Notes under the pieces: model-generated
What the model saw: only the letters and a program-made list of their open reading frames with translations
Databases searched by the model: none
Told to the model about the DNA's origin: nothing
Shown here: positions 5,718 through 59,169 of the stretch, one piece after another
Numbering within the stretch: position 1 is the stretch's first letter
How the letters are laid out: every line of letters begins with the position of its first letter
Source of the DNA: an uncultured Acidaminococcales bacterium
GTDB taxonomy: Bacteria > Bacillota > Negativicutes > Acidaminococcales > JAISLQ01
Reading direction: 5' to 3'
Length of the DNA: 64,000 nucleotides
Assembly: GCA_964551985.1 (NCBI GenBank)
Contig: CAZKFG010000003.1
Span: 3,821-67,820 of the forward strand
Program-made: the position numbers and the translations under genes

Positions 5718-5755
5718 ACTTTTGTTTTTTGCATAGATAAAAGTGTAAATAGTCT

Positions 5756-5784: not shown

Positions 5785-5847
5785 AAATATATACGTGCTT
5801 TAATAATATTTGTTTTTAAATATACAATAATTTTGGAGGTGTTTTTA

Positions 5848-6303: not shown

Positions 6304-6317
6304 GGAGTGTGTTGTAA

Positions 6318-6752: not shown

Positions 6753-6774
6753 AAAATATTTGGAGGCATTAGTA

Positions 6775-7080: not shown

Positions 7081-7126
7081 TTTAAGTAGATGATTTGTTA
7101 TTTATACTTTTGAAAGGATGTAGAAT

Positions 7127-8779: not shown

Positions 8780-8800
8780 ACTGGGTGTGTGGAGGTTTTT

Positions 8801-12250: not shown

Positions 12251-12270
12251 AGTGCTAAGGATGAGAAATA

Positions 12271-12726
12271 TTGAAGCCCTTTGTATTTAAATTAGAAACA
12301 CTTTTAAAAATAAGAAAAAGACATGAAGAAGAAGCTAATATTGCTTTGTCTAAAGCACGAAAAAAACTGTTTGAAGCAAAAACATACTTAGAAAAACTAA
12401 CAACCCAGCAGCAAGAAACTGTAGATGCTTTCAAACAAAAACAAGAAAACAAAGAACTTTTTGCTTTAGAATTTCAAAGTTGGTACACTTTTATAAATTT
12501 TTTACAAACTCAAATAAAAGACCAAATACTAATAGTAGAACAGATAACACAAGAAGTAGCAACTGCACTAAAGCTTTTAGAACAAGCAATGAAAAACCGT
12601 AAATCAGTTGAGAAATTAAAAGAAAAACGTTATGAACAATATAGAATAGATATGCTTTTAGAAGAACAAAAAATACTTGATGAAATGGCTATTACTAGAT
12701 TTAAAAGCACAAGCAAAAACTTTTAG
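12271..12726 (+). CDS. fliJ: Flagellar export chaperone/stalk protein FliJ
   Basis: A 151-aa all-coiled-coil protein immediately after fliI. It begins FKLETLLKIRKRHEEEA and starts with TTG. Confidence 0.8.
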   Translation: MKPFVFKLETLLKIRKRHEEEANIALSKARKKLFEAKTYLEKLTTQQQETVDAFKQKQENKELFALEFQSWYTFINFLQTQIKDQILIVEQITQEVATALKLLEQAMKNRKSVEKLKEKRYEQYRIDMLLEEQKILDEMAITRFKSTSKNF

Positions 12727-12746
12727 AGAGGTGTTGATTAAAGCTT

Positions 12747-13304
12747 ATGAACCCTATAAGTAAAGTACACGCTCGTATAGCAGAAATAGAAAAAAAATTC
12801 AATCCACAACAAACACAACAAGAATCAAGCTTTTCAGATTATCTAAAAACTGCTCAAAGCAAAGATAATGATACAATATCTGCTATAAGAAAAAAACCGA
12901 TTCAAGAACAAAATACTAACTACGAAAAAGGCAGCATAAAACAAATGCTAGTAGAAACTGCACAAAAATATGGAGTTGACAGCAACCTTGTATTAGCATT
13001 GGCTAATGCTGAATCAGGATACAGAACAGATGCCGTATCACCAGTTGGAGCAGTTGGCGTAATGCAATTAATGCCTGACACTGCTCGTGGTTTAGGCGTA
13101 GAAGATAGCTTTGATCCAAAACAAAACATTGATGGTGGCGTAAGGTATCTAAAACAAATGCTCTCAATGTTTGGTGGCGATACAACAAAAGCGCTTGCTG
13201 CATACAATGCAGGACCAGGAGCAGTACAAAAATACGGTGGAATTCCGCCGTATGCCGAAACACAAGCATACGTAAGAAACATTTTATCTGAAATAGCACA
13301 ATAA
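12747..13304 (+). CDS. SLT-domain lytic transglycosylase encoded inside the flagellar operon
   Basis: The family-1 lytic transglycosylase signature LALANAESGYRTDAVSPVGAVGVMQLMPDTA ... AYNAGPGAV is present (catalytic Glu-Ser, GLMQ-like and AYNAG motifs). Confidence 0.85.
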   Translation: MNPISKVHARIAEIEKKFNPQQTQQESSFSDYLKTAQSKDNDTISAIRKKPIQEQNTNYEKGSIKQMLVETAQKYGVDSNLVLALANAESGYRTDAVSPVGAVGVMQLMPDTARGLGVEDSFDPKQNIDGGVRYLKQMLSMFGGDTTKALAAYNAGPGAVQKYGGIPPYAETQAYVRNILSEIAQ

Positions 13305-13326
13305 CTATAAAAAGGGAGGGTATGTT

Positions 13327-14166
13327 TTGCCTACAGTTAAACAAGAACAAATCCCAACTGAAGATGAACAACAAGATACCTCTGCTGGTGTTTACAAAAA
13401 CAATCAAGACACATTTTTTACTAAAACAAAAAGATTATTAAACCCTGTAAAAATTATCAAATATTTAGCTAAAAACATTTGGAAGCCGGTTTTAGCATTT
13501 GTTTTACTGTTTGGTTTAATACTAGGACTTGTCTATGCAGGCAGCTATTACAAACTATTAGACGCCAAAAAAACTCTTGATTTTGAAAACTCCATGGCAA
13601 GTCTTAGACAATCTGATAATTTTATAGTAACAAGTACTTTGCCAGTTTTAGAGTGGATAGCATCATCATTTGCCGGTGCCGGTGAAATAATGCAAGCCCA
13701 AATAGACAGACAAGAACAACAAATAATGCAAAAAGAACAAGAACTACAAGAGCAAAAAAAGCAAGAAGAACTAAAAGCTCAAGAAGCTGAAAAAGAAAAA
13801 CAAAAAAAAGAACAAGAACAGCAAAAAGCAGCAGCTAACAAACAAACCACAACATCAGCTAAAAAAGACCAAACAACAGCTGACTTACAAAAAGCTGCCG
13901 ACGAAAGACAAAAAGAACTAATCAAAAGAGCAAGTAAACTAGCTACATACTATGCGACAATGCCACCGCAAAACGCTATAAACATAATGAAAAATATGGA
14001 CAACGAAGAAATCATTATAGTTTTAAGCCGTATGCCAGATGAAACAGCATCACAAATTTTAGCAGGCTTTGAACCAGATAGAGCCTCAATTATCTCCAAG
14101 AGCATTCTTAAATTACGTCCGACAGTCGAACCAACAACACCAAACAAAGCAAACGACGTCTTGTAA
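13327..14166 (+). CDS. Membrane-anchored coiled-coil protein with a C-terminal MgtE-N-like domain, at the position of B. subtilis ylxF
   Basis: It has an N-terminal TM (VLAFVLLFGLILGLVYAG), a KEQE-rich coiled coil, and the C-terminal MPPQNAINIMKNMDNEEIIIVLSRMPDETASQILAGFEPDRA (MgtE intracellular N-domain-like). It lies between fliJ and fliK. Confidence 0.55.
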   Translation: MPTVKQEQIPTEDEQQDTSAGVYKNNQDTFFTKTKRLLNPVKIIKYLAKNIWKPVLAFVLLFGLILGLVYAGSYYKLLDAKKTLDFENSMASLRQSDNFIVTSTLPVLEWIASSFAGAGEIMQAQIDRQEQQIMQKEQELQEQKKQEELKAQEAEKEKQKKEQEQQKAAANKQTTTSAKKDQTTADLQKAADERQKELIKRASKLATYYATMPPQNAINIMKNMDNEEIIIVLSRMPDETASQILAGFEPDRASIISKSILKLRPTVEPTTPNKANDVL

Positions 14167-14208
14167 TTTAATCAAATAAATGCTAATACACTGAAAGGAG
14201 GTGAGAAA

Positions 14209-15648
14209 ATGGATGCGATGAATTTATTTGCAACAACGGCAGCAGCAACTTTAAATCAACAAACACTACAACCAAATCAAATAGCAACAACTCCCAACAA
14301 AGAAATGGCAGGCAAATTTGGCAAAGTACTTAAGACCATAGCCACAACAGATGCCATAAATCTTTCAGATGCAGAAATCAACCAGTTAGAAACATCGCAA
14401 GTAAGTCAGATAGCAAGCATGTTACAAGCAAACGTCGTTTTACCAGTAGTTTTACAAACAAAAACAGACAATACTACCGAACAACAAATACCTACAACTG
14501 CAATTAAGGAAACGACCAACTTAGTTAAAGAAACACAAACAACAATACAATCACTTGCTGTCAAAGCCCAAAACTTGCAAGAGTTTTTATCCAAAATGAC
14601 AAAAGAAGAACTTGCCAAAATTGTTCAAACAAACCCACAATCAGTAAACGAAGAACAACAAGCAAATCTCCAGCAAACAACGAAAAATGAACCTATTGAG
14701 ATAAAAACAACACAAGACCAACAAAACATAGACTCTCAAAAACAAACAATTGATGCAAAACAAATTTTTGGCGACAAACTAGTTGAAAGCAAAACAACAG
14801 ATATGATTTTGCCAACAACCCAGCCAAAAACAAAAGTTGCTCAAACTACCCCACAAGTACTGACAGATGAACTTACACTAGTCAATAACGCTGTAACAAC
14901 CGAAGTGAAAAAACCACTAACAAAAGAACTCGAACAAAACACTTTGAGCACACTTCAAACAGTTGATTTAAAACAAGAACTGCAAACAAAACCAACTATC
15001 GAAATACAAAACCAACTAACAGACCTAACAAAAACGCCACTTGTAACAACAATTCAAAGCAAAAACCTAAAAGATGACCTAAACCTATTTGAAGAAATTG
15101 TCAAAAAAGAAGAACTCACATTTACAGACAAAATAGCAACAATCGCTGGCGAGACAAAACAGCCAGAAATACAAAAAATAACTTTTGACAAAGAACCAAT
15201 AGCACTAGCCAATCTAAAAGAAGTAGTCGACCAAATTGTAGAACAAGCCAAACTTACACAAAAACCAGGCATATCAGAAATGATCCTACGCCTAAAACCA
15301 AACAACCTCGGTGAAATGACAATCCGCATAATCGCAGGTGACGGAGGAACAATCACAGCCTCATTTCACACAAACAACCCAGAAGCAAGAGCAATTTTAC
15401 AACAATCTTTGCCGACAATAAAGCAAGAACTAGCAAACACCGGACTTAAAGTCAATGACGTAGGTGTTTACGCAGGACTAGGCGACTTCCAGTCATTTGC
15501 CCAACAAAGAGAAGGTCAAACAAATCAACAAAATTCACCAAAAATAAACGCAGCAAAACTAGCAATGCAAGACCAAGAACTACTAGAAGAACTGCAAGCA
15601 CAAAGCGACAATACAAGCTTAGACGGCGGCGTAGACTACAGAATATAA
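14209..15648 (+). CDS. fliK: Flagellar hook-length control protein FliK
   Basis: 479 aa. It has a Q/T/P-rich extended ruler region and a C-terminal Flg_hook-type domain (ISEMILRLKPNNLGEMTIRIIAGDGGTITASFHTNNPEARAILQQSLPTIKQEL). It lies upstream of flgD-flgE. Confidence 0.8.
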   Translation: MDAMNLFATTAAATLNQQTLQPNQIATTPNKEMAGKFGKVLKTIATTDAINLSDAEINQLETSQVSQIASMLQANVVLPVVLQTKTDNTTEQQIPTTAIKETTNLVKETQTTIQSLAVKAQNLQEFLSKMTKEELAKIVQTNPQSVNEEQQANLQQTTKNEPIEIKTTQDQQNIDSQKQTIDAKQIFGDKLVESKTTDMILPTTQPKTKVAQTTPQVLTDELTLVNNAVTTEVKKPLTKELEQNTLSTLQTVDLKQELQTKPTIEIQNQLTDLTKTPLVTTIQSKNLKDDLNLFEEIVKKEELTFTDKIATIAGETKQPEIQKITFDKEPIALANLKEVVDQIVEQAKLTQKPGISEMILRLKPNNLGEMTIRIIAGDGGTITASFHTNNPEARAILQQSLPTIKQELANTGLKVNDVGVYAGLGDFQSFAQQREGQTNQQNSPKINAAKLAMQDQELLEELQAQSDNTSLDGGVDYRI

Positions 15649-15668
15649 AGAACAAAGGAGGAAAATAG

Positions 15669-16298
15669 ATGTCAAACAATGTAAACCCAATAACAACTGG
15701 AGCACCAACGGCAAAAGAACAAGTCAAAAATAAAAACGGCGAACTAGGCAAAGACGCCTTTTTAAAACTACTCGTTGCCCAACTCCAAAACCAAGACCCA
15801 CTAGCACCGGCAGAAGACAAAGAATTCATCGCCCAACTATCAACATTCTCAATGCTAGAACAAATGCAAAACATGAACTCGTCAATGCAAGCAACCCAAG
15901 CCTCAAGTTTAATCGGTAAACAAGTAACATGGCAAGAAACCGTCGATGGAGAGCAAAAAGTCTTCTACTCAACAGTAGAATCAGTAAGAGTAGCTGGAGA
16001 CCAAGTATACCTAGTAGTAGACTCAGAATCAGGCAAAGAAATAAAACTATCAGACGTCAAACTAATCGAAGACGCAAACGGCGACTACACAAATCAAATC
16101 GGTCAAGCATCAATGCTTATAGGAAAAATAGTAAGCTGGTACGAAAAAGGTGAAGACGGCAAACCAGTAGAAAAATCAGCCGAAGCTACATCAGTAAAAG
16201 TATCACAAGGCAAAGTTTACCTAGTAGTTGGTAAAGACGCCGACGGCAAAGACATGGTAATCTCAATGGACAGCGTATCTAGCGTAAAACCAAAATAA
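15669..16298 (+). CDS. flgD: Flagellar hook-capping/assembly protein FlgD, with a duplicated C-terminal module
   Basis: The FlgD N-motif LGKDAFLKLLVAQLQNQDPLAPAEDKEFIAQLSTFSMLEQ is present, followed by two similar LIGK-x-V-x-W...VYLVV...modules. Confidence 0.92.
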   Translation: MSNNVNPITTGAPTAKEQVKNKNGELGKDAFLKLLVAQLQNQDPLAPAEDKEFIAQLSTFSMLEQMQNMNSSMQATQASSLIGKQVTWQETVDGEQKVFYSTVESVRVAGDQVYLVVDSESGKEIKLSDVKLIEDANGDYTNQIGQASMLIGKIVSWYEKGEDGKPVEKSAEATSVKVSQGKVYLVVGKDADGKDMVISMDSVSSVKPK

Positions 16299-16325
16299 CA
16301 AAGGAAAATTGACAGGAGGGATAAA

Positions 16326-16718
16326 ATGACAGACCCAAGACTTTTTTACCCAATCCCGCCAATAGTTTCCAATACTACCACAACAATTAAGCCGCAAAAC
16401 CAACAAAACACAACAGTTCAACCAAAAATAGACTTCAAAAGCGTGCTTAACAACGAAATAAAACAAGTAAAATTCTCTCAACATGCCCTGCAACGTCTAG
16501 ACAGCAGAAACATAATCCTAGACGAACAACAAATAGAAAAACTCCAGCAGGCAGTAGACAAAGCCACACAAAAAGGCTCAAGAGAATCACTGGTATTAAT
16601 GGATAACCAACTGGCATTTGTTGTCAGCGTTAGAAACCGAACCGTGATTACAGCCATGGACGGCAACTCTATCAAAGACAATATATTCACAAACATCGAC
16701 AGTGCAATAGTTATATAA
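16326..16718 (+). CDS. Small 'flagellar operon protein' (resembles the TIGR02530 family) between flgD and flgE
   Basis: 130 aa. The motif FSQHALQRLDSRNIILDEQQIEKLQQAVDKA...LVLMDNQLAFVVSVRNRTVITAM matches my recollection of the flgD-flgE-linked family. The assignment is from memory and position, not a search. Confidence 0.55.
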   Translation: MTDPRLFYPIPPIVSNTTTTIKPQNQQNTTVQPKIDFKSVLNNEIKQVKFSQHALQRLDSRNIILDEQQIEKLQQAVDKATQKGSRESLVLMDNQLAFVVSVRNRTVITAMDGNSIKDNIFTNIDSAIVI

Positions 16719-16799
16719 GCTGGACCTTAAGGAAGCTTAGAGTATGGAATGAAAGAAATACTCAAACTAGCACGAAATAAAAGGAGGTCATTTCATCTT

Positions 16800-18803
16800 A
16801 TGATGCGTTCACTTTATACTGGGGTATCAGGTTTGAGCAATCATCAAACCAGAATGGATGTACTCAGTAACAATATAGCCAATGTCAACACAACAGGCTT
16901 TAAAGCAAGCCGTACAGTTTTCTCAAGCGCCCTTAGCCAAACAATCCAAGGCGCAACATCACCACAAGGTAACGTTGGCGGTATCAACGCCAAACAAATC
17001 GGACTAGGTGTAAAAACAGCTGCAATAGATATACTGTTTACCAAAACAAGCTTCCAAACAACAAACGTCAACACAGACCTTGCTATCAACGATAACGGCT
17101 TTTTCATCGTAAACAACGGAGCGCAATCCTTCTACACAAGAGCAGGCAACTTCGGTTTTGACGAAGATGGTAGCTTTGTTAACGTTGACGGTCTAAAAGT
17201 AATGGGCTGGCTGGCAGACAAAACCGGCAATATCAATACTGCTGCACCAATCGAGGCAATCAAAATACCTGTAACAGACACTATGGATCCTAAAATAACA
17301 ACATACCTAGATGCTATCGGAAACCTAGACTCTAGTGCTGGGCTAGGCATGATAGGCTCGTCTTCAAAAGACGTTTTCGACTCACAAGGTTTTGCTCATA
17401 GAGTATCTACGAACTACACCAAAGTTGGCGACAACCAATGGCTTGCAGCTACAGACGTAAAAGGAGTGGAGCCTGGCACTACAGTACAAGGTACTATAAA
17501 AAGAATATCATTTGATGCTTATGGTAAATACATGGGCTCTGAAGATGTTACTTTAGCAGGACAACCATCTAAAGCAGTATTTTTAACAGCCTTTAACTCA
17601 AAGTTAGACTTGCCTAATGATGCTATGGCTGGTGGTCCAATTACTGACACCGTTACTTACCAAGATTCAGCGGGAAATGCTCAAACCATAACTATTACAG
17701 CTACATTAACTTCTCCTGCAACTGCTGTAGGTGCTACGGATGCAGAGTGGGAGGTGGAATTTGACTTCGGTGGTGGTACTACACCACAAACGCAAACAAT
17801 TTCTTCGACAAACCAAAATCCTAGCTGGAATCCGATGGTTGTTACTATTGGTACTGATACAGTGTCATTTACACCAAATACTCAAATAACTTTTGAATCT
17901 GGCGTTACTCCTGCATTTGTATCAAAATCAGGTCCAACAAGAACTGTTGGTACAGCCGTATCAGATGCATTCACGGCAGCAGGAATAGAACTTGATAGAA
18001 ATGCTAGATTAAACGATACAAAAGAAGGTGCAATAACTTTCATGGATTCAGATAATATTCCCCGTGCTTTAGGCGTCAAAGCTACTTGTACAGCAGCACC
18101 AAACGGGGCCAACCCAGCAACGTGGAAACTAGAATTTATTGAAAATGGTAAGGTAGTTGGTTCGCAGAGCTATTCTACATTAGTAGCCAACGATTTGCCA
18201 CCACTTACTCTGACTGACGGTTCTATGGTTTCTTTTACAGGGGCAGGTAGTTCTGTTACTATCGGTAATACCGCAACAGCTCTTAATACAGTGCCAATGA
18301 CCCCAACGGGTACGGATATGCCACTATCTTTTCAACCAGCAGGTGGAACAGCAAGCCCATTGTCAATAAATATGTCTTACAATGCTCTGACACAATACGC
18401 CGGTGGCTTTAATATGGGTGACCCTAAGCAAGACGGTTATTCAGCAGGTGATTTGAAAGACAAAGTAATTGATGCATCCGGTACAATTATTGGTAAATAT
18501 TCTAATGGTCAGATGTTAAAACTAGGTCAAGTTGCTACAGCAATTTTTAACAATCAACAAGGGCTAGAGCGGGCTGGTTCGACATTGTTTACAGCGTCTA
18601 ATAACTCAGGAGATCCAATAATTGGTACAGCAGGTACCGGCGGACGCGGAACTATGCAAGCGGGCGCTATAGAGATGGCTAATGTTGATTTAGCAGAAGA
18701 ATTTACTAATATGATAGTAACTCAACGTGGTTATCAATCCAATTCAAGGGTAATTACAACTTCAGACGAAATGCTCCAAGAATTAATGAGTCTTAAACGT
18801 TAA
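16800..18803 (+). CDS. flgE: Flagellar hook protein FlgE (large form with an extended central domain)
   Basis: The N-terminus is MMRSLYTGVSGLSNHQTRMDVLSNNIANVNTTGFK and the C-terminus is GAIEMANVDLAEEFTNMIVTQRGYQSNSRVITTSDEMLQELMSLKR. The ATG at 16800 follows GGAGG (16783-16787). The track ORF starts further upstream at 16749. Confidence 0.93.
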   Translation: MMRSLYTGVSGLSNHQTRMDVLSNNIANVNTTGFKASRTVFSSALSQTIQGATSPQGNVGGINAKQIGLGVKTAAIDILFTKTSFQTTNVNTDLAINDNGFFIVNNGAQSFYTRAGNFGFDEDGSFVNVDGLKVMGWLADKTGNINTAAPIEAIKIPVTDTMDPKITTYLDAIGNLDSSAGLGMIGSSSKDVFDSQGFAHRVSTNYTKVGDNQWLAATDVKGVEPGTTVQGTIKRISFDAYGKYMGSEDVTLAGQPSKAVFLTAFNSKLDLPNDAMAGGPITDTVTYQDSAGNAQTITITATLTSPATAVGATDAEWEVEFDFGGGTTPQTQTISSTNQNPSWNPMVVTIGTDTVSFTPNTQITFESGVTPAFVSKSGPTRTVGTAVSDAFTAAGIELDRNARLNDTKEGAITFMDSDNIPRALGVKATCTAAPNGANPATWKLEFIENGKVVGSQSYSTLVANDLPPLTLTDGSMVSFTGAGSSVTIGNTATALNTVPMTPTGTDMPLSFQPAGGTASPLSINMSYNALTQYAGGFNMGDPKQDGYSAGDLKDKVIDASGTIIGKYSNGQMLKLGQVATAIFNNQQGLERAGSTLFTASNNSGDPIIGTAGTGGRGTMQAGAIEMANVDLAEEFTNMIVTQRGYQSNSRVITTSDEMLQELMSLKR

Positions 18804-46653: not shown

Positions 46654-47721
46654 ATGAGAAGAAAAACCAGACAAATAAATATTGGTGGCGTTTTAGTTGG
46701 TGGTGATAGTCAAATATCAGTTCAATCAATGACTAATACTAAAACTCATGATGTAAAAGCCACTATCAAACAAATACAGCAGCTTGTTGATGCAGGTTGT
46801 GATATAGTTCGTCTTGCTGTACCTGATGAACAGGCAGCAAACTCTTTAACTGATATTAAAAAAGCAGTTAAAATACCTATTATCGCTGATATTCACTTTG
46901 ATTATCGCTTGGCACTTTTGGCAATGGACAATAAAGTAGATGCTTTGCGCATAAATCCTGGAAATATTGGCAGTAAAGAAAATGTTGCAAAAGTAGTGCA
47001 AAAAGCCAAAGAGTGCAATATACCTATTCGGATAGGAGTAAATGCAGGCTCTTTGCCAAAAGATTTGATAAGAGAGAACCAAAAGCCGCAACCTGAAGAT
47101 TTGGTGCAAGCGGCAATGCGTAATATTGAAATCTTACAAGAGTTAGACTTTCACGATATAAAAATTTCGCTAAAAGCACATGATGTCCCACTTACAATAG
47201 CCACATATCAACTTATTGCAAATAAAGTCGATTATCCACTGCATTTAGGAATAACAGAAGCAGGCACTATTAATAGCGGGATAATAAAATCGGCTGTCGG
47301 CATAGGTGCGCTTTTAGCTCAAGGGATAGGCGATATATTAAGGGTTTCTTTGACAGGGGATCCTGTTGAGGAAGTAAAGGTTGGCAGGCAAATTTTAAAA
47401 GCACTTGGACTTAGATCTTATGGACCTACGATAGTATCTTGTCCTACTTGCGGAAGAACAGAAATTGATTTAGAGAAACTAGCGCTCAAAGTGGAAGAGA
47501 AACTATCCACAATTAAAGATGATATAACAGTTGCAGTTATGGGCTGCATAGTAAATGGACCAGGTGAAGCTAGAACTGCTGATGTAGGGATAGCAGGCGG
47601 CAAAGGACAAGGACTTATTTTTAAAAAAGGTCAGATATTGCGCAAAGTAGAACAAGATAAATTGCTTGATGAATTGTCAAAAGAGATAGATGAGATATTA
47701 AAAGAGAGGGCGAGAGCTTAA
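46654..47721 (+). CDS. ispG: 4-hydroxy-3-methylbut-2-enyl-diphosphate synthase (flavodoxin/ferredoxin type)
   Basis: Motifs are [34 protein letters not shown] and GCIVNGPGE. Confidence 0.97.
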
Positions 47722-49427
47722 TGTTATTTTCTAAATTATATGCACCAACGCTGCGCGAAGTGCCGGCAGAGGCGGAAGTTATAAGCCATAAACTGCTACT
47801 TAGAGCAGGTTTTATAAAAAAAGCTGCAGGTGGATTTTATACCTATCTACCACTAGCATGGCGAGTGTTGAAAAAAATAGAACAAATTGTGCGTGAAGAA
47901 ATGGATGCTAAAGATGGTCAAGAAATTTCTATGCCAATAGTTCAACCTGCTGAAATATGGCAAGAAAGTGGTCGTTGGTCTGTATACGGAGATGAGATGT
48001 TTCGTTTGACAGATAGGCATAAAAGACCTTTTTGTTTAGGTCCTACACATGAAGAAATGGTAACAACAATAGTAAAAAGTGACATAAGATCATATAAGCA
48101 GTTGCCGGTGCTTTTATATCAAATACAAAATAAATATCGTGACGAGAGACGTCCAAGATTTGGACTGATGCGTGGTCGTGAATTTATAATGAAAGATTTA
48201 TATTCTTTTGACCGCGATGAAGAAAAACTGGAAGTATCTTACCAAAAAATGTATGAAGCTTATACAAATGTGTTTAATCGTTGTGGCCTTGATTTTAGAC
48301 CTGTGGAAGCAGACTCTGGTGCAATTGGCGGTAGCGGCTCACATGAGTTTATGGTTTTAGCAAATAGTGGTGAAGCCGAAATTGTTTACTGTACAAATTG
48401 TGATTTTGCAGCAAATACTGAAAAAGCAGAGCTTAACACTATTGTCGAACAAGAAGAGCAAATGCTTTCTTTAGAAAAAGTACATACGCCAGATTGTACA
48501 ACAATAAAAGATGTTTGTGAATTTTTAAATTCACCTGTACACAAAAGTGTTAAAGCTGTTGCTTATGATAGTGATAAAGGACTTATTTTAGCCTTTGTTC
48601 GTGGTGATCATGAGGTAAACGAAATAAAAGTGCTTAATGCTGTTGGTGCAATAGATTTGACTATGGCTACAGAAGAAAGTCTGACGAAGGCTGGAACTGT
48701 TGCAGGTTATATGGGACTATTAGGTGAGAAAAAAGATGTTACAATAGTTGTTGACAGCACCATTATGAATATGCACAATTTTGTTTGTGGTGCTGACATT
48801 AGCGAATACCATTACAAAAATGTCAATCCAAAGCGTGATTTTAAAGCAAGTATTATAACCGATATACGTATGATTAGTGCAAATGATCCTTGTCAAAGAT
48901 GCGGCGGTAAGTTAGAAACTGCAAGAGGCATTGAAGTGGGTCAGGTATTTAAGTTGCACACTAAATACTCTGAGGCGCTATCGGCTACATTTTTAGATGA
49001 AAATGGCAAAGAAAAACCAATGGTTATGGGTTGCTATGGCATAGGTGTAAGTAGAACTATGGCAGCAGCCATTGAGCAAAATAATGATGAAAATGGTATG
49101 ATATGGCCCTTGTCAATAGCGCCATATCATGTTGTCGTAGTGCCTGTTAATGCTAAAAATCAAGAACAATTTGATTTATCTAAACAAATTTATGATACAC
49201 TCTGTAGCAATAACATAGAAACTGTCTTAGACGACAGACCAGAGCGTGCAGGGGTTAAATTTAAAGATGCCGATTTAATTGGTTACCCTATTCGCATAAC
49301 GATTAGCCCAAAAAGTATTGAAGAAGACCGAATAGAAATAAAAGTACGTAAAAATGGCGAAGTTATTTTTGCAAGTAAAGAAGATTATTTAGATAAGATA
49401 CAACAGCAACTAAAATTTTTAAAATAG
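47721..49427 (+). CDS. proS: Prolyl-tRNA synthetase (bacterial type with INS editing domain)
   Basis: 568 aa. It has class II motifs ([16 protein letters not shown]; GCYGIGVSR), a central editing insertion, and an anticodon-binding C-terminus. The start overlaps the ispG stop (TAATG), and there is no room for a T-box leader. Confidence 0.97.
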
Positions 49428-49469: not shown

Positions 49470-50348
49470 ATGGCAAATCATGGTAAAAGTATAAACTTAT
49501 TTTTGATGGATGGAACTCCTAACGGTATCATTAAATGTAGCTTGGCTAATTGGACTGGTGTTGCATATAAAATTCCTCGTACAGAATTAGAAAAGTGTAA
49601 GGAAAGGGAAGAACTTTCTCAAAGCGGCATATATTTTCTGTTTGGAAAATCTGAGCAAAATGATGAGCAAGTTGTTTATATTGGTCAAGCAGGTGTTAGG
49701 AAAACTGGAGATGGTATTTTGTACAGATTACAAGAGCATAAGCGTAATCCAGACAAAGATTATTGGACAGAGGCTATTGTATTTACAACTTCTAATAATT
49801 CTTTTGGTCCTACTGAAATTAGTTATTTAGAGCATCGATTTTGTAAAATAGCAAATGAAGCCAAACGTTATTTTGTAAAAAATGCAAATGAACCTTCATT
49901 AGGCAATATAACAGAAGAAAAGGAATGTGAGCTAGAAGAATTTATTGATTATGCTAAAATTATTGTAGGTACATTAGGGCATAATTTATTTGAACCATTA
50001 ATCAAAAATGTTTTATCCAATGATAATAAAAAAGACTTAAAAATGTTTTATATAAAAAGAAAAAGTAAAGTAGGTACTTTTATAGATGCACGTGGAATTC
50101 AAACAAACGAAGGTTTTGTTGTATTAAAAGGGAGTACAATAAACTTGAAAGAAACACCTAGCTTACAAAATAATGTCAAGAAGTTTCGTAAAGAAATAAA
50201 TATAGATAGTAATGGAATATTACAAGAAGATGTTCTTTTTAGTAGTCCATCTTATGCTGCTTGTTTGGTGCTAGGTCGTTCAGCTAACGGACTAATCGAA
50301 TGGAAAAATAAAGATGGAAAAATATTAAAAGAAATAGAAAACAGTTGA
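49470..50348 (+). CDS. GIY-YIG nuclease-family protein with a C-terminal DUF4357-like domain (accessory insertion between proS and polC)
   Basis: The N-terminal half carries GIY (SGIYFLFG) and YIG (VVYIGQA), followed by R (YRLQEH) and E (ISYLEHRF). The C-terminus (ARGIQTNEGFVVLKGS...SPSYAACLVLGRSANGLIEWKNKDGK) resembles DUF4357 as I remember it. The SD AAGGAGG is upstream. Confidence 0.75.
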   Translation: MANHGKSINLFLMDGTPNGIIKCSLANWTGVAYKIPRTELEKCKEREELSQSGIYFLFGKSEQNDEQVVYIGQAGVRKTGDGILYRLQEHKRNPDKDYWTEAIVFTTSNNSFGPTEISYLEHRFCKIANEAKRYFVKNANEPSLGNITEEKECELEEFIDYAKIIVGTLGHNLFEPLIKNVLSNDNKKDLKMFYIKRKSKVGTFIDARGIQTNEGFVVLKGSTINLKETPSLQNNVKKFRKEINIDSNGILQEDVLFSSPSYAACLVLGRSANGLIEWKNKDGKILKEIENS

Positions 50349-50476: not shown

Positions 50477-53400
50477 ATGTTTATAGATTATTGTCTTTTT
50501 CCGCAAAATGATAGTTGTTTTGAAGATTATTTAGCTAATTTAGATGAAAAAATAGATTGTACTGAAAATGTAAAAGTTTTGAAAGTAAACGTTTCTTTAA
50601 AAGATAATTGCTGGCAGATAGTTGCTGAAAAAAATAATTTATCTCAAGAAGTATTGGATGATTTTTCGACTTTTCTATGTCAAAAACATAGTATTGATAA
50701 AGTTGTTTTTACTTTTGCTGATGAAAATGAATGCTTGCTAGAGTTTATTAAGAGCTATTTATTAAAACGTATTTTTGAAAATCATCAAGAACTTTGTCCT
50801 GTTTTGCAACAAAGTGTTTGGCAGCTAGAGAATAATAATTTAAATATAATTCTTGATAGCAAGTTTTTTTTAGAACGTATGAAAAAGAAAAAAATTGATA
50901 ATTTTTTGATTGACATTCTAAAAAATGATTTAAATAAAGAAATCGCAATTAATTTTTTAGTTATAGAAAAAACCGTTGAACAACAAGAACAGGATTTTGA
51001 GCAAGAGCTAGAAAAAGAGCTAGAGCAGATACAAAAAGAAGTTTGTGCAGTTAAAAAACCTGTTCAAGATGGATTGATTTATGGTAAATCTTTTAAAGGT
51101 GATCCTGTTAAAATATCTAGTATTCAAGAAGAAGAAAGTAAAGTAATTATTCAAGGAAACATTAATAAAATCGACTGTAGAGAGCTAAGAACAGGTCGTA
51201 TAGCTTTAAAATTTAGCATTGCTGATGATACAGATGGTATTAATGCCAAGATATTTTTTGAAAGTAAAGAACAGTTTAATAGAGAAGCAAGTAATATAAA
51301 AGAAGGTTTGTATGTTAAAATAAGTGGTTATGTACAAAGTGATAGATTTGAACGCAATGACCTTATTCTTACACCTAAAGGTATAATGCTTTTGCAAAAA
51401 CAGTTGCGGATGGATGATGCTCAAGAAAAAAGAGTAGAATTTCATGCTCATACTAAGATGAGCGCACTAGATGCTGTTATGGGTATTAAAGATTATATCA
51501 AATGTGCAGCTAGGTGGGGTCATAGCGCAGTCACTATTACAGATCACGGTGTAGTCCAAGCATTTCCAGAAGCGTATGACGTTGCTAAAAAAGAGAAAAT
51601 TAAACCGATTTTTGGTATGGAAGGATATATGGTAGAAGCAAATGAAGAAAAAAGTACTTCATATCATATAGTTATTTTGGCAAAAAATCAAAAAGGATTG
51701 TTTAACCTATACAAATTAATTTCATTATCACATTTAAAGTATTTTTACAAAAGGCCAAGAATTCCAAGAACTTTAATTGAAGAATATCGTGAAGGACTTA
51801 TTTTAGGTTCAGCTTGCGAAGCAGGAGATTTATATCAGGCTTTTTTAAACAATCAATCGGAAGAACAAATTGAAAAAATTGCTAGTTTTTATGATTATCT
51901 TGAAATACAGCCAAACGGTAACAATCAATTTTTAATAAGGCAAGGAAAAATTGGCAGTGAAAAAGAACTTTGTGAGATAAACAAAAAAATTGTGCAGCTT
52001 GGTAAAAAACTTGGTAAACCAGTTATTGCAACTTGTGATGTGCATTTTTTAAACCCGGAAGATGAAATGTACAGACGCATTTTGCAGGCAGGTCAAGGTT
52101 ATAGTGATGCCGACGAGCAAGCGCCTTTGTTTTTTAGAACAACCCAAGAAATGCTCGATGAGTTTTCTTATTTAGGTGAAGATTGTTATGATGTTGTTGT
52201 TACAAATACAAGAAAAATAGCAGGTTTAATAGATAATATAAAACCAATTCCAGAAGAATTGTATTCGCCACAAATTTCTGGTGCTGCTGATGATGTTACT
52301 AATATGTCCTATAGTACAGCGAAAAGACTTTATGGTGAAAATTTGCCGCAAATTGTTGTTGATAGACTGAAGTTAGAACTCAATTCAATTGTTGGCAATG
52401 GCTTTTCAGAACTATACTTAATAGCTCACAAGCTTGTTAAAAAATCGCTTGATGATGGCTACCTGGTAGGGTCTAGGGGTTCTGTTGGTTCTTCTTTTGT
52501 TGCAACAATGATGAATATTACAGAGGTAAACCCTCTACAACCTCATTATCGCTGTGCTAAGTGTAACTACAGTGAATTTATTACTGACGGTAGCTATGGA
52601 TCAGGTTTTGATTTGCCTGATAAAGCTTGTCCACATTGTAGTGAAAATTTGCAAAAAGATGGTCATGATATACCGTTTGCTGTATTTTTAGGCTTTCATG
52701 GTGATAAAGTTCCTGATATAGACCTGAATTTTTCTGGAGAATATCAAGCTCAAGCACACAAGTATACAGAAGAACTATTTGGCAGAGCAAACGTATTTAG
52801 AGCAGGCACTATTTCTACAATAGCCGACAAAACTGCAGCAGGATTTGCTAAAAAATATTATGAAGAAAGAGCCGTTACTGTAAGAAACGCACGTATTGAT
52901 TGTTTGATACCTGGCTGCACTGGCGTAAAAAGAACTACAGGTCAACATCCTGGCGGAATAATGGTTGTTCCTCGTGATATGGATGTGCATTACTTTACGC
53001 CTGTACAAAGACCTGCTGATGATAGTAGCTCTGACACAATTACAACTCATTTTGACTATCATTCTATAAGTGATAGGCTTGTCAAATTAGATATTTTAGG
53101 TCACGACGATCCGACCGTTATTAAAATGCTAGAAGATATGATAGGTTTGTCAGCTAAAGATATCCCTTTTGGTGACGAAAAAACTGTGTCTATATTTTCT
53201 TCTACTGAAGCTATAGGCTTGACTCCAGAACAATTAGGCTCTAGTGTTGCCACTTTAGGTATACCTGAATTTGGCACACGGTTTGTACGGCAGATGTTAG
53301 AAGATACAAGACCGAAATGTTTTAGTGAGCTAGTGCGTATTAGTGGTTATTCACACGGCACCGATGTGTGGATTAAAAACGCGCAAGATTTGATTAAAGA

Positions 53401-54133
53401 CGGTATAGCTAAGGTGTCTGAGACAATTGCAGCTCGTGATGACATAATGATTTTTCTTATGCAAAAGGGTGTCGAGCCACTAACTTCTTTTAAAGTAATG
53501 GAAGACGTTAGAAAAGGTAAAGGCGTAAAGGATGAATACCAAAAGCAGATGCGCTCTAACAAAGTGCCTGAATGGTATATCGAATCTTGCAATAAAATAA
53601 AATATATGTTTCCTAAAGCTCACGCTGTTGCTTATGTTATGATGGCGTATCGCATAGCTTATTGCAAGGTTTATCATCCGGTAGAATTTTATGCAGCATA
53701 TTTTAGTATTAGGGCGGATGATTTTGATGCTCAACTTGTTATGCAAGGGACTAGCTTCATTAAAAATTATATAAAACAGGTAGAAGATAAAGGTAAAGAA
53801 GCATCAGAAAAAGAAAAACGAATAGTTACAATATTAGAACTTGCTTATGAGATGCAAATGAGAGGGATTAATTTTAAGCATGTTGATGTATATAAATCTG
53901 ATGCGACTAAGTTTTTGATATTTCCTGATGGAATTTTGCCACCACTTACAGCACTTGCCGGACTTGGTAAAAATGCAGCTGAAAATATTTGTAAAGCTAG
54001 GGAATGTAATCAGTTTATATCCAAAGATGATTTTAGACTAAAAACAGGTATATCAAAACCAGTGCTAGAGCTATTGACAAGTCAAGGCTGTCTAGACTCA
54101 TTACCAGACAGCAATCAAATAAGTTTATTTTAG
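50477..54133 (+). CDS. polC: DNA polymerase III alpha subunit, PolC type, atypically lacking the intra-PHP 3'-5' exonuclease domain
   Basis: A 1218-aa continuous ORF. PolC-specific features are an OB-fold region, PHP motifs (RVEFHAHT, TDHGVVQAF, FGMEGY, YHIVILAKNQKG, GSACEAG, CDVHFLNPED), the palm motif DDGYLVGSRGSVGSSFVA, a zinc module CAKC...CPHC, DIDLNFSGEYQ, KRTTGQHPGGIMVVP, LDILGHDDPT, IPEFGTRFVRQML, KYMFPKAHAVAYV, and the terminal NQISLF. Only about 10 residues link FGMEGYMVE to YHIVIL. Confidence 0.93.
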   Translation: MFIDYCLFPQNDSCFEDYLANLDEKIDCTENVKVLKVNVSLKDNCWQIVAEKNNLSQEVLDDFSTFLCQKHSIDKVVFTFADENECLLEFIKSYLLKRIFENHQELCPVLQQSVWQLENNNLNIILDSKFFLERMKKKKIDNFLIDILKNDLNKEIAINFLVIEKTVEQQEQDFEQELEKELEQIQKEVCAVKKPVQDGLIYGKSFKGDPVKISSIQEEESKVIIQGNINKIDCRELRTGRIALKFSIADDTDGINAKIFFESKEQFNREASNIKEGLYVKISGYVQSDRFERNDLILTPKGIMLLQKQLRMDDAQEKRVEFHAHTKMSALDAVMGIKDYIKCAARWGHSAVTITDHGVVQAFPEAYDVAKKEKIKPIFGMEGYMVEANEEKSTSYHIVILAKNQKGLFNLYKLISLSHLKYFYKRPRIPRTLIEEYREGLILGSACEAGDLYQAFLNNQSEEQIEKIASFYDYLEIQPNGNNQFLIRQGKIGSEKELCEINKKIVQLGKKLGKPVIATCDVHFLNPEDEMYRRILQAGQGYSDADEQAPLFFRTTQEMLDEFSYLGEDCYDVVVTNTRKIAGLIDNIKPIPEELYSPQISGAADDVTNMSYSTAKRLYGENLPQIVVDRLKLELNSIVGNGFSELYLIAHKLVKKSLDDGYLVGSRGSVGSSFVATMMNITEVNPLQPHYRCAKCNYSEFITDGSYGSGFDLPDKACPHCSENLQKDGHDIPFAVFLGFHGDKVPDIDLNFSGEYQAQAHKYTEELFGRANVFRAGTISTIADKTAAGFAKKYYEERAVTVRNARIDCLIPGCTGVKRTTGQHPGGIMVVPRDMDVHYFTPVQRPADDSSSDTITTHFDYHSISDRLVKLDILGHDDPTVIKMLEDMIGLSAKDIPFGDEKTVSIFSSTEAIGLTPEQLGSSVATLGIPEFGTRFVRQMLEDTRPKCFSELVRISGYSHGTDVWIKNAQDLIKDGIAKVSETIAARDDIMIFLMQKGVEPLTSFKVMEDVRKGKGVKDEYQKQMRSNKVPEWYIESCNKIKYMFPKAHAVAYVMMAYRIAYCKVYHPVEFYAAYFSIRADDFDAQLVMQGTSFIKNYIKQVEDKGKEASEKEKRIVTILELAYEMQMRGINFKHVDVYKSDATKFLIFPDGILPPLTALAGLGKNAAENICKARECNQFISKDDFRLKTGISKPVLELLTSQGCLDSLPDSNQISLF

Positions 54134-54269: not shown

Positions 54270-54737
54270 TTGGAAGGAGAGTTTTTTCTGTCAAAAAAAG
54301 ATGTAGAACAAAAAGTGGAGCAAATAGTTTTAGAGATTATTAAAGATTTGCAAATTGAATTGGTAGACGTTGAGTATGTTCGTGAAGGACAGTGGTATTT
54401 ACGCATTTTTTTAGATAAAGATGGTGGGATAGAAATTGATGACTGTCAAAGTATCAGTGAACGGATGACTGATATTTTAGACGAGCAAGATTTTATAAAA
54501 GAGAGCTATTATTTAGAAGTATCTTCACCCGGCTTAGATCGTAAGCTAAGAAAAGAGCGGGATTTTGTAAAACATAAAGGTCAGATAGTTGAAGTTAAAA
54601 TAAGAAAAGAAAAAAATATTTTAGTAGGTATTTTAGGCGATTTTTCCGATGAATTCATGGAATTTATTGTTGATGGTGAGCCAAAACAAGTAAATCGCAA
54701 AGACATAACATCAATTAGACTACATTTAGATTTTTAA
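54270..54737 (+). CDS. rimP: Ribosome maturation factor RimP
   Basis: Motifs are LVDVEYVREGQWYLRIFLDKDGGIEIDDCQSISE and YYLEVSSPGLDRKL. The start is uncertain: the TTG at 54270 overlaps the SD-like GGAAGGAG, and a CTG lies at 54288. Confidence 0.88.
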   Translation: MEGEFFLSKKDVEQKVEQIVLEIIKDLQIELVDVEYVREGQWYLRIFLDKDGGIEIDDCQSISERMTDILDEQDFIKESYYLEVSSPGLDRKLRKERDFVKHKGQIVEVKIRKEKNILVGILGDFSDEFMEFIVDGEPKQVNRKDITSIRLHLDF

Positions 54738-54760
54738 ACGTAAAAATAGGAGGATATAAA

Positions 54761-55807
54761 GTGAATACAGAATTACTCAATGCCTTTAGTGAACTTGGCA
54801 GAGAAAAGGGGATTGTACCAGAAATACTATTTGATGCAGTAGAGGCGGCTTTAATAGCGGCATACAGGAAAAACTTTGGTTCTGCTCAAAACGTTCGTGT
54901 GGCACTTGATCGTAAAACAGGAAGCATGAAAGTTTATTCGAGAAAAATAGTCGTAGATAAGATAGATGATGCTTATTTAGAAATACTTTTAGATGACGCA
55001 AGAAAAATAGATCCGCGTTATCAGTTGCAAGATATTATAGAGACAGAAGTTACTCCAAGAAATTTTGGCAGAATTGCTGCTCAAACTGCAAAACAAGTAG
55101 TAGTACAAAGAATACGCGAAATTGAACGTGGACTTGTATATGAGAAGTTTTCTAATCGTGAAAGTGATATTGTTACAGGCTTAATACAAAGAGTAGAAAA
55201 TAAAAATGTTTATATAGATTTAGGTAAAGCAGAAGCTATATTAGTACCAAATGAGCAAATAGAAGGCGAGATATATCGTCCGTTAGAGAGAATAAAAACA
55301 TATATTATCGAAGTTAAAAAGACCAGCAAAGGTCCCCAGATAATGGTCTCTCGCACACACCCTGGATTGTTAAAGCGTCTTTTTGAATTAGAGGTTCCTG
55401 AAATTCACGATGGTTTGGTAGAGATAAAATCTGTTGCTAGAGAGCCTGGTATGCGTTCTAAAATATCAGTGTATTCAAAGGACGAAAATGTTGATCCTGT
55501 AGGTTCTTGTGTAGGACATAAGGGTATGAGAGTACAGACTGTTGTCAACGAACTTCGTGGCGAGAAAATCGACATAGTAAAATATAGCACAGACCCTGCA
55601 GAATATGTAGCAAATGCACTTAGTCCTGCAAAAGTGGTGCTTGTAGAGGCCAGTACTAATGAGAAGGTATGTCAGGTTGTAGTGCCGGAATATCAATTGT
55701 CTTTAGCAATAGGTAAAGAAGGTCAAAATGCCAGACTTGCTGCTAAATTAACTGGTTGGAAAATAGATATAAAAAGTGATAACAATGCTAGCATTGAGGA
55801 GGTATAA
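54761..55807 (+). CDS. nusA: Transcription termination/antitermination factor NusA (348 aa, no AR C-terminal extension)
   Basis: It has an N-terminal RNAP-binding domain, S1 (GLIQRVENKNVYIDLG), and KH1/KH2 (CVGHKGMRVQTVVNELRGEKIDIV; LSLAIGKEGQNARLAAKLTGWKIDI). The start is GTG after AGGAGG. Confidence 0.96.
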   Translation: MNTELLNAFSELGREKGIVPEILFDAVEAALIAAYRKNFGSAQNVRVALDRKTGSMKVYSRKIVVDKIDDAYLEILLDDARKIDPRYQLQDIIETEVTPRNFGRIAAQTAKQVVVQRIREIERGLVYEKFSNRESDIVTGLIQRVENKNVYIDLGKAEAILVPNEQIEGEIYRPLERIKTYIIEVKKTSKGPQIMVSRTHPGLLKRLFELEVPEIHDGLVEIKSVAREPGMRSKISVYSKDENVDPVGSCVGHKGMRVQTVVNELRGEKIDIVKYSTDPAEYVANALSPAKVVLVEASTNEKVCQVVVPEYQLSLAIGKEGQNARLAAKLTGWKIDIKSDNNASIEEV

Positions 55808-55815
55808 GAAATTGT

Positions 55816-56079
55816 ATGAAAGTAAAAAAAACACCTCAAAGAATGTGTGTTGGTTGTCAACAAATGAAATCAAAAAAGGAATTGCTCAGAATTGTCAGAA
55901 CACCTGAAGGTGAAATAACAATAGATAAAACTGGCAAAAAATCTGGTCGTGGTGCTTATGTTTGTGCTGATGAAGCGTGTATTAACAAGGCATACAAAGA
56001 AAAGCGATTGGAAAAAGCACTTGAAAAAAGCATCGATGGTGAAATATACAAAAATTTGCTTGGTGATTTAGCAAAATGA
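55816..56079 (+). CDS. ylxR: YlxR/RnpM-family RNA-binding protein (DUF448)
   Basis: The sequence PQRMCVGCQQMKSKKELLRIV...GRGAYVC is the DUF448 signature. It lies between nusA and infB. Confidence 0.9.
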   Translation: MKVKKTPQRMCVGCQQMKSKKELLRIVRTPEGEITIDKTGKKSGRGAYVCADEACINKAYKEKRLEKALEKSIDGEIYKNLLGDLAK

Positions 56080-56378
56080 GTAAAATAGAATTTGCCTTAG
56101 GGTTGGCACAAAAAGCAGGAAAGCTTGCTACTGGTGATACAGCAGTAAGTTTTGCAGTCAAATCTGGTAGAGCATATTTAATTTTAGTAGCACAAGATGC
56201 GTCTTCAAACTCACAAAAATATGTAACAGATATGGCAAAAAATAATGATACACCTGTTGTGGTGTGTTTGAGTAAAGATAGATTAGGACAAGCTATTGGT
56301 AAGGCACAACGAACAGCTGTGGCAATCTTAGATAAGAACTTTGCCCAGATGGTGCGAAAGAGTTTGGAGCAAGAATAA
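56076..56378 (+). CDS. ylxQ: L7Ae-family RNA-binding protein YlxQ
   Basis: 100 aa with LGLAQKAGKLATG...LILVAQDAS...LGQAIGK. It has the conserved position before infB. Confidence 0.88.
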   Translation: MSKIEFALGLAQKAGKLATGDTAVSFAVKSGRAYLILVAQDASSNSQKYVTDMAKNNDTPVVVCLSKDRLGQAIGKAQRTAVAILDKNFAQMVRKSLEQE

Positions 56379-56397
56379 AAGTTTTGGAGGTGGATAG

Positions 56398-59169
56398 ATG
56401 CCTAAGCACAGAATATTTGAACTAGCTAAAGAATTTGATACTACAAGTAAGGTTGTTTTGGATATATTAACTAGAAATAATATTGAAGTTAAAAATCACA
56501 TGAGTAGTGTGGATGACAATGTAAAAGATTTAATTGGTAAGACTTTTGCCCGTAAAGCGGCTGAAGTAGAAAAGCCAAAAACAATTGAGGTAAGACAACC
56601 ACAAAAAGAAGTTAAAGTAGTAGATACAAAAAAAGTAACTGAACAGGTGAAAAAAGAGGCGGAACCAGTAAAGAATACGCCAGAAAAAATAGTTTTTACA
56701 CCTAGTCCTGTAAAGAAAAGTTATAATGATAGGCAATTTGCACATAAGCCAAATAGCTATCAAAATAATAATGCAAAAAAAGATTTTGCCGATAAACCAA
56801 GATATGAGCAAAATGCTAATAGAAATTTTCAATCAAACCAACAAAGACCACAGCAAACAAACAATCAAGGAAATGCGCAAAGACCGTTGTTTCAACCTAA
56901 TCAGCAAAGGCCGCAACAACATAACAATCAAGGAAATGCACAAAGACCTCCTTATCAACCAAATCAACAAAGACCGCAACAATACAACAATCAAGGTAAT
57001 ACGCAAAAATCTCCTTATCAACAAAACCAACAAAGACCACAACAAAATAACAATCAAGGTAGTGTGCAAAGACCTCCTTATCAACAAAACCAACAAAGAC
57101 CGCAACAGTATAATAATCAAGGTAATGCGCAAAGATCTCCTTATCAAAATAATCCAAACAATCAAAATAGACCAAACTATGCACCAAGAAAAGATTTTTC
57201 AGCTTCTGCTAGACCAGTAGCAAATGATAACAAAAGAGTGTTTGTGCCTGATACAAAACCACCAGAAGTTCAACAAAACAAATTTTTTAATCCACAAAAA
57301 AAGAAACAAAAAGGTTTTGACAAAAAATTTGATAAAGAGAAAACAGATAATTTAAACAAAAACAAAAATGCAGGAAAACCTAGTCGTGCCGGTGCTTTTA
57401 TAATGCCGACGGTTAACAAACACAAACCTACAAGCATAGAAATACCGGAATCTATTTCGGTAAAAGATTTTGCGGAAATAACAAAAAGAGAAGTAGCAGA
57501 AGTCATTAAAGCACTTATGCACCTTGGTGTTATGGCTACAATTAATCAAGAGATAGATTTTGATACAGCAAGTTTGGTTGGCGGTGAATTTAATGTAGAA
57601 GTAATTGCATTACCACCTGAACAAGATCCAACTGAAATACCAGAAATTGAAGATGACCTTAAAAAACATGTTCACAGAGCGCCTGTTGTTACAATAATGG
57701 GTCATGTTGACCATGGTAAAACTTCTTTACTTGATACGATAAGAAAAACAAATGTTACAGCTCGTGAAGCTGGTGGTATTACTCAACATATTGGTGCTTA
57801 TCAAGTACATTATCAAGGTAAAAAGATAGTATTTTTAGATACTCCTGGTCATGAAGCATTTACTTCTATGCGTGCTAGAGGTGCGAAAGTTACTGATATT
57901 GCGATATTAGTTGTTGCTGCAGATGATGGTGTTATGCCACAAACAATAGAAGCTATCAACCATGCTAAATCAGCAGAAGTACCTATTATTGTTGCGATAA
58001 ATAAAATTGATAAACCAAATGCTCAGCCTGATAAAGTAAAACAACAATTGTCAGAGCATGGGCTATTAGCTGAAGACTGGGGCGGACAGACCATAATGGT
58101 TCCAGTTTCTGCACATAAAAAAATCGGACTTACAGATTTATTAGAGATGATTTTACTTGTTGCAGAAATGCAAGAACTTACTGCAAATCCTACAATTCCA
58201 GCGCAAGGCACTATTATCGAAGCACAACTTGACAAAGGCAAAGGGCCTGTTGCTACAGTTTTGGTGCAAAAAGGAACGCTACGTGTTGGCGATACAATAT
58301 TGGCTGGTACTGCATACGGTAAAGTACGGGCAATGTCTAATGAACGTGGTGAACTACTTAAAAAAGCAGGTCCGTCCACACCTGTTGAATTGCTTGGCTT
58401 GTCAGGAGTTCCTATGGCAGGTGACATTTTAAATGTTACTGATGAGAAAGTTGCTCGTAGTATTTCAGAAAAACGACTAGCAAGACAAAAGACAGAGGAA
58501 TTACAAAATAGTAGTAAAGTATCATTGGATGATATTTTCAGACAAATACAAGATGGTAAATTAAAAGAACTTAAAATTGTTGTTAAAGCAGACGTTCAAG
58601 GTACAATTGAAGCTTTGCGTCAATCTTTAGAAAATATCAAAAATGAAGAAGTAAAAGTAGTAGTTGTGCACTCTGGTGTTGGTGCAATAAATGACACTGA
58701 TGTTATGTTGGCATCAGCCTCTAATGCACTTATTATTGGCTTTAATGTTCGTCCTGACGCAAATGCTAGAAAAACTGCCGAAAACGAAAAAGTAGACATT
58801 AGAATGTATCGTGTAATATATGATGCTATAAATGATGTTGAAGCTGCTATAAAAGGTATGCTCGCACCAAAATATAAAGAAGTCATACAAGGCCGAGTAG
58901 AAATAAGACAAGTAATTACAATCTCTAAGATGCTAATTGCAGGCTGTTATGTTCTTGAAGGTAAAATAACACGTACAAGCAAGGTGCGTTTATTGAGAGA
59001 CAACATTATTGTCTATGAAGGTGAGCTGGAATCTTTACGCCGTTTTAAAGACGATGTTAAAGAAGTAGCAGCAGGCTATGAATGTGGACTTACACTAGAT
59101 AAGTTCCGCGATGTTAAAGAAGGCGATATTGTCGAAGCTTATATTATGGAAGAAATAAAGCAAGACTAG
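56398..59169 (+). CDS. infB: Translation initiation factor IF-2 with a repeat-expanded N-terminal region
   Basis: 923 aa. It has the G-domain ([26 protein letters not shown]) and C-terminal domains. The N-terminal third contains five Q/N/P-rich 21-aa repeats. Confidence 0.97.
56839..57153 (+). repeat. Five imperfect tandem copies of a 63-bp unit inside infB, encoding ([21 protein letters not shown])x5
   Basis: Unit boundaries were read directly at 56839, 56902, 56965, 57028 and 57091. The repeat explains the alternative-frame and antisense ORFs 56726..57220(+), 56833..57165(-) and 56897..57187(-). Confidence 0.9.

Follow-up and report, generated by a model that had tools for sequence, protein, structure and literature searches.

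How does a replicative polymerase of the PolC type proofread the DNA it makes when its own exonuclease domain is gone? This question is raised by the polC gene in a 64-kb stretch of DNA (the window) from an uncultured Acidaminococcales bacterium (contig CAZKFG010000003.1). PolC, the model replicase of Gram-positive bacteria, is a target of antibiotics, and the DnaQ-like exonuclease of the DEDDh type that is fused into it (the Exo domain) is treated as a hallmark of the enzyme. The protein encoded in the window is a PolC from which this domain has been cleanly excised and in which the canonical metal site of the PHP domain has been kept. That this trinuclear PHP site proofreads in cis in the window PolC is the reading we prefer, with a probability of roughly 0.6.

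An initial annotation, made from the letters of the window, had described polC as a single uninterrupted open reading frame (ORF) of 1218 amino acids, in which the landmarks of PolC could be aligned and the Exo domain was missing, leaving a deficit the size of a domain. All of this was borne out. The reading frame was unbroken over its whole length, and a Pfam domain scan, reported down to E<=1, matched N-terminal domain II, OB, PHP, pol3-alpha, fingers and HHH_6 in the order known from PolC (N-terminal domain, OB N-terminal to PHP, polymerase core, helix-hairpin-helix); RNase_T (PF00929) was absent from the ORF even at this threshold. The cut-offs of the NCBIfam PolC equivalogs (NF001688 / TIGR01405) were exceeded (1550.7 bits against 873 and 1400 bits against 1043), with the match split in two, the Exo part of the model being skipped and the second stretch placing residues 391-1218 on model positions 610-1444. 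Structure alignments gave the same picture. The engineered delta-N/delta-Exo PolC of G. kaustophilus (3f2b) aligned in a single stretch (residues 210-1218), as a clean excision would have it, and the window PolC is in effect the natural counterpart of this crystallisation construct. The alignment to the full-length PolC of E. faecium (9qpc) broke into two stretches (residues 164-387 on 201-430 and 391-1218 on 635-1471), so that about 205 residues of 9qpc were left without a counterpart.

The site of the loss lies between the PHP ligands E382 and H397, where the initial annotation had correctly placed a short connector, although the length of about 10 residues given there did not hold: the connector comprises 14 residues (GYMVEANEEKSTSY), as against some 213 in Exo-containing PolCs. 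In a MAFFT alignment the junction spanned 26-27 residues in the window PolC and in the PolCs of three Acidaminococcales metagenome-assembled genomes (MAGs), and 225-230 residues, with the FDxETTG, HNAxFD and HHRAxxDA motifs, in 12 Exo-containing PolCs from Clostridium, Sarcina, Thermotogae, Fusobacteria, Bacilli and Mollicutes. A hidden Markov model (HMM) built from the Exo domains of these 12 proteins gave no match in any of the six frames of the window (best E=0.25; positive control 1e-85), and no Exo I-III motifs (DxE, D, HxxxxD) occurred in the ORF or in any of these frames. An AlphaFold2 model of residues 301-600 (predicted local distance difference test score, pLDDT, 88) contained the whole PHP domain, with the strands on either side of the former insertion site (model residues 76-86 and 95-102) predicted to be linked by a tight hairpin turn. 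The model superposed on delta-Exo 3f2b with a template modelling (TM) score of 0.86, and in its comparison with full-length E. faecium structures about 200 extra columns corresponded to their Exo domain.

The nine PHP ligands (Table 1) were confirmed by script at each of the positions given to them in the initial annotation, and the ligand set of the trinuclear metal site, defined as HHDHEH[C/H]DH (PMC12926913), is complete in the window PolC as HHDHEHCDH. Canonical PolCs (B. subtilis, G. kaustophilus 3F2B and E. faecium 9QPC) are 45-60% identical to the window protein over the OB, PHP, palm, thumb, fingers, zinc module, helix-hairpin-helix and clamp motif and share its chromosomal neighbourhood. 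In contrast, the window protein is without the DEDDh domain of about 200 residues, and at the eighth ligand position it reads ATCDVH (D521), where the enzymes of G. kaustophilus and E. faecium have an Asn (ATGNVH) and DnaE1 of Taq reads ATNDGH. Banos-Mateos et al. put the missing PHP exonuclease activity of G. kaustophilus PolC down to that Asn, and the D226N variant of the M. tuberculosis enzyme was inactive (PMC5636811). The Asp at position 521, as in the active Taq and M. tuberculosis enzymes, thus appears to strengthen what the initial annotation had said of the PHP domain. The same nine ligands, again with no fused DEDDh domain, are found in M. tuberculosis DnaE1 (5LEW) and Thermus Pol III alpha (2HPI/4IQJ), and the predicted PHP fold of the window protein matched those of these PHP-exonuclease replicases with TM scores of 0.71-0.76.

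A survey of relatives recovered the same short PolC throughout. PF00929 was found in none of the best 120 database homologues (944-1247 amino acids), and those named among them (Thermosinus, Sporomusa, Pelosinus, Acetonema, Propionispora, Methylomusa, Veillonellales, Acidaminococcales and Succinispira) were all Negativicutes. The 117 homologues that were full-length came from independent assemblies and were 54-67% identical to the window PolC; in every one the connector measured 11-14 residues, and no substitution was seen at the nine PHP ligands or the two polymerase aspartates. Mean column identity in the clade alignment was 66% over the full length of PolC, and the Q, L and F of the C-terminal NQISLF, which fits a motif with a clamp-binding role (QxxLF; PMC3919608), were each at least 90% conserved. 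Judged by this conservation, PolC is under strong purifying selection over its whole length. The gene order ispG-proS-polC-rimP-nusA-ylxR-L7Ae-infB was common to the window and to Exo-containing loci of Clostridium/Sarcina and Bacillaceae. The nearest genomes were Acidaminococcales MAGs, at 60-65% identity, and Succinispira mobilis, the nearest homologue being 67% identical, and the organism is therefore a poorly sampled Negativicute. Homology and gene order show the ORF to be the orthologous and, as far as sequence tells, functional replicative PolC of an Acidaminococcales-related Negativicute.

The relation between the two potential proofreaders was then analysed across PolCs at large. Representatives of 150 clusters at 50% identity were aligned with MAFFT and scored for how long the insert between E382 and H397 was, which DEDDh residues were present and whether the nine PHP ligands had been kept, and classes were counted among the 133 representatives of at least 1100 amino acids. 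The DEDDh domain was intact in 98, with the PHP site intact in 52 of them and broken in 46. No Exo domain (insert of at most 40 residues) was present in 22, of which 21 had an intact and one a broken PHP site, and the remaining 13 carried an insert of 61-291 residues that had lost the DEDDh motifs and was mostly invisible to the Exo HMM, with the PHP site intact in 12 and broken in one. The PHP site was thus intact in 33/35 Exo-defective (22 + 13) against 52/98 Exo-intact representatives (Fisher p=4e-6, ignoring kinship). As to the two exceptions, P0229 is N-terminally truncated, and P0241 is encoded on the same contig as a 1400-aa Exo-containing PolC, directly downstream of it, and is therefore a tandem paralogue. 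Near relatives behaved differently from the Exo-less proteins: among the 35 Exo-intact representatives that were 50-55% identical to an Exo-less one, the PHP site was broken in 20.

In a neighbour-joining (NJ) tree the Exo-less PolCs were interspersed among Exo-containing clostridial-type PolCs, with 14 Fitch changes (11-18 over 100 bootstraps; about 24 with shuffled states), a count that is only indicative, the NJ tree being unrooted and its backbone weakly resolved. Several Exo-less PolCs were nearer to Exo-containing than to other Exo-less proteins (e.g. P0148, 66% against 59%), and their linkers ranged from 11 to 38 residues. Named Exo-less examples outside the Negativicutes included Thermoclostridium and MAGs of unclassified Clostridia, Clostridiaceae and Oscillospiraceae. 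These data point to a DnaQ-like domain that was recurrently lost or decayed, a change apparently tolerated only with an intact PHP site. We give about even odds to the wider proposition of 'never neither', in which the DnaQ-like domain and the PHP domain would be interchangeable proofreaders of PolC, the DEDDh domain having been lost or eroded several times, independently, in clostridial-type PolCs and sole full-length PolCs having borne this only with all nine ligands intact. If true, it makes the PHP domain of PolC a sufficient replicative proofreader.

Several PolCs of this survey may be recorded in their own right. Ten from Clostridia MAGs (P0163, P0164, P0167, P0187, P0196, P0209, P0211, P0213, P0242 and P0260) have an insert of 142-291 residues that has lost the DEDDh motifs and most of its similarity to DnaQ, with the PHP site intact in all, and they look like intermediate stages in the decay of the Exo domain. 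P0255 (1631 amino acids) and P0274 (1918 amino acids) have an insert of about 411-413 residues at the PHP site, around twice the normal size of the Exo domain, which suggests an extra domain beside the exonuclease. The metagenomic contig L048 encodes tandem PolCs at 3702-7904 and 8001-11537, the first of 1400 amino acids with an Exo domain and the second of 1178 amino acids without one; the PHP site of the second is degraded (HRSLENTDQ), the sole full-length case seen with neither proofreader. The pair is flanked by resolvase, DnaJ-like and TnpB-like (Cas12f1-like_TNB) genes.

In the window PolC the DEDDh domain, seated between two PHP strands in other PolCs, has been removed, leaving a 14-residue hairpin and a complete PHP barrel. 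In the mechanism that we propose, the PHP metal site would carry out 3'-5' proofreading of PolC-made DNA in cis, as it does in DnaE1 of M. tuberculosis and in Thermus Pol III alpha. The products of the partner DnaE1, which the literature describes as having an intact PHP domain in this class, would be proofread by DnaE1 itself. The initial annotation had offered PHP in cis and a DnaQ-like subunit in trans as sources of proofreading. Both were the right candidates, and the comparative pattern favours the PHP domain as the probable cis proofreader. A number of points weigh against this. Most clostridial PolCs that have an Exo domain likewise keep an intact PHP site. Conservation alone is therefore no proof of PHP activity and might reflect something else, for instance a contribution to stability (PMC3666897) or another phosphoesterase function. 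The Fisher value does not allow for phylogenetic non-independence. In the literature searched, no experimental PHP exonuclease activity of a PolC was found, and the dnaQ and dnaE content of this genome is visible only within the window. The loop beside the PHP site also differs. The loop that holds the Exo insertion in PolC is the one that lines the path of the primer into the PHP site in M. tuberculosis DnaE1 (PMC5636811), and in the window protein, which is of the PolC and not the DnaE type, it is short and acidic, with 14 residues against 18 in Taq (basic) and 29 in M. tuberculosis DnaE1, the loops of those enzymes being basic or Ser/Tyr-rich.

A short, acidic loop is also what might be expected if PolC did not proofread at all. 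Under such an arrangement PolC would be a subsidiary or lower-fidelity polymerase, most of the synthesis or the part critical for fidelity would fall to DnaE1, with its intact PHP domain, together with mismatch repair, and the PHP ligands would be kept for folding or stability. The idea was raised by Timinskas et al., who weighed DnaE1 as the main replicase of such genomes, all Exo-less PolCs occurring in genomes with PolC and DnaE1 and some Clostridia having DnaE1 only (PMC3919608), and a structural role of the PHP domain is documented in E. coli (PMC3666897). However, a PHP domain with a purely structural role tolerates the loss of ligands, as in E. coli, in DnaE3 and in the 46 of 98 Exo-intact representatives described above, yet no such loss was seen in a sole Exo-less PolC. 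Purifying selection, the invariant catalytic aspartates, the conserved QxxLF motif and the housekeeping synteny likewise speak against this reading, and we hold a PolC without proofreading to be doubtful.

Quite unlikely, in our estimate, is proofreading in trans by a separately encoded DnaQ-like epsilon subunit bound to PolC or to the replisome, with the PHP site kept for other reasons. A bacterial proteome does contain, on average, more than three stand-alone homologues of DnaQ (PMC12926913), a putative epsilon-binding surface is conserved on the DnaE1 of Clostridia and Negativicutes (PMC3919608), and the Exo domain of B. subtilis PolC can work in trans on DnaE3 products, as cited in PMC12926913. 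In contrast, no DnaQ-like ORF was present in any frame of the window or around polC in three Acidaminococcales relatives (at most 10 kb per side; contig L001 is only 5 kb long), and in the 2026 survey (PMC12926913) no stand-alone DnaQ was named as the proofreader of Clostridia-type systems. An epsilon subunit would also leave unexplained why a sole Exo-less PolC never has a degraded PHP site. An assembly deletion, a pseudogene or a non-essential paralogue, for which the draft or MAG-type nature of the contig (73.7 kb) would speak, has a negligible probability, the first two being ruled out by conservation across the clade, because 117 homologues from independent assemblies have the 11-14-residue linker, similar junctions and invariant ligands and the reading frame is intact, and the paralogue by the ancestral synteny proS-polC-rimP-nusA-infB, in keeping with the lack of any two-PolC Negativicute in Table 1 of PMC3919608.

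The initial annotation had implied a new and unusual replisome design, and in this it went too far: the architecture is the norm of the lineage among the best 120 homologues, and the window PolC belongs to an Exo-less variant already catalogued in 2013/14. Timinskas, Balvociute, Timinskas and Venclovas (Nucleic Acids Research, 2014) reported that about 6% of PolCs are without the Exo insertion and that these are confined to Clostridia and Negativicutes, apart from a single additional copy in Thermotogae (PMC3919608). Compared with that variant we find no architectural difference, the Negativicutes lineage and the retained PHP metal site being shared; what sets the window copy apart is its origin in a poorly sampled Acidaminococcales-like lineage. 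PHP proofreading has been raised as well, by Tremblay et al. (2015), who found a substitution in the PHP domain of Sporomusa ovata polC1 during laboratory evolution and considered it as a possible mutator (PMC4632017), a point in favour of the cis reading. The Exo-less and DEDDh-eroded PolCs are also counter-examples to a passage in the Discussion of PMC12926913.

The class Negativicutes (diderm Firmicutes, among them Veillonella, Megasphaera and Acidaminococcus from the gut and mouth) and scattered Clostridia replicate with an Exo-less PolC. If the PHP domain proofreads in them, it would be a general, ancestral proofreader and not a peculiarity of mycobacteria and Thermus, inhibitors directed at PHP would have a wider spectrum, and these bacteria would offer a natural system in which to ask why two proofreaders coexist in most clostridial PolCs. 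The 'never neither' pattern makes the proofreading question directly testable.

Table 1. Features of polC and its conserved neighbours in the window (window coordinates; residue numbers refer to PolC).
Feature	Coordinates	Strand	Basis
polC ORF, 1218 aa, Exo-less PolC-type DNA polymerase III alpha	50477..54133	+	ORF, Pfam, NCBIfam, structure alignment
PolC N-terminal domain II (residues 106-195)	50792..51061	+	PF11490, E=5.9e-6
OB fold (residues 223-299), N-terminal to PHP as in PolC	51143..51373	+	PF01336; 3f2b alignment
PHP, N-terminal part; ligands H323, H325, D332, H357, E382	51440..51622	+	Pfam, script check of ligand positions, 117-homologue alignment
14-residue acidic hairpin GYMVEANEEKSTSY (residues 383-396), at the Exo site of other PolCs	51623..51664	+	script, MAFFT, AlphaFold2 model
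PHP, C-terminal part; ligands H397, C447, D521, H523	51665..52045	+	ligand positions, 117-homologue alignment
Polymerase core, palm/thumb/fingers (residues 608-1024)	52298..53548	+	PF07733, PF17657
CxxC...CxxC zinc module, C693-C696 + C718-C721	52553..52639	+	motif positions; alignment to G. kaustophilus PolC
Polymerase catalytic aspartates D747/D749 in PDIDLNF, invariant in 117/117 homologues	52715..52723	+	homologue alignment
Tandem helix-hairpin-helix domain (residues 1130-1211)	53864..54109	+	PF14579
C-terminal NQISLF, fits QxxLF clamp-binding consensus (predicted)	54113..54130	+	sequence; clade alignment
proS, kept upstream neighbour	47721..49427	+	gene-order comparison
rimP-nusA-ylxR-L7Ae-infB, kept downstream neighbours	54270..59169	+	ORFs, gene-order comparison

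Between proS and polC lies an ORF of 292 amino acids (49470-50348, +) with a C-terminal DUF4357 (E=3e-16) and, judged by eye and without Pfam support, a GIY-YIG-like N-terminus; NCBIfam gave no match to it. In the closest relative (L002) only 143 nucleotides separate proS from polC and the ORF is missing; it is therefore probably a lineage-specific insertion. An Rfam scan of the window gave no matches. Over positions 1-62000 the window follows a B. subtilis-like order (topA, trmFO, xerC, a fla/che operon with fliF to flhA, flhF, cheA and others, proS, polC, rimP, nusA, infB and a DHH/DHHA1 protein), with nearly all genes on the + strand and a cumulative GC skew that climbs steadily, as in one replichore. 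At 12000-18000 (fliJ, an SLT-domain gene, fliK, flgD and flgE of the flagellar operon) the composition changes markedly: the GC skew becomes negative, down to -0.21, while the AT skew increases to 0.44 and the GC content to 0.41. In infB, a tandem repeat with a unit of 63 nucleotides (56829-57147, +; 5.1 copies, 83% matches) gives initiation factor 2 (IF2) a repetitive stretch rich in Q, N and P within its N-terminal region.

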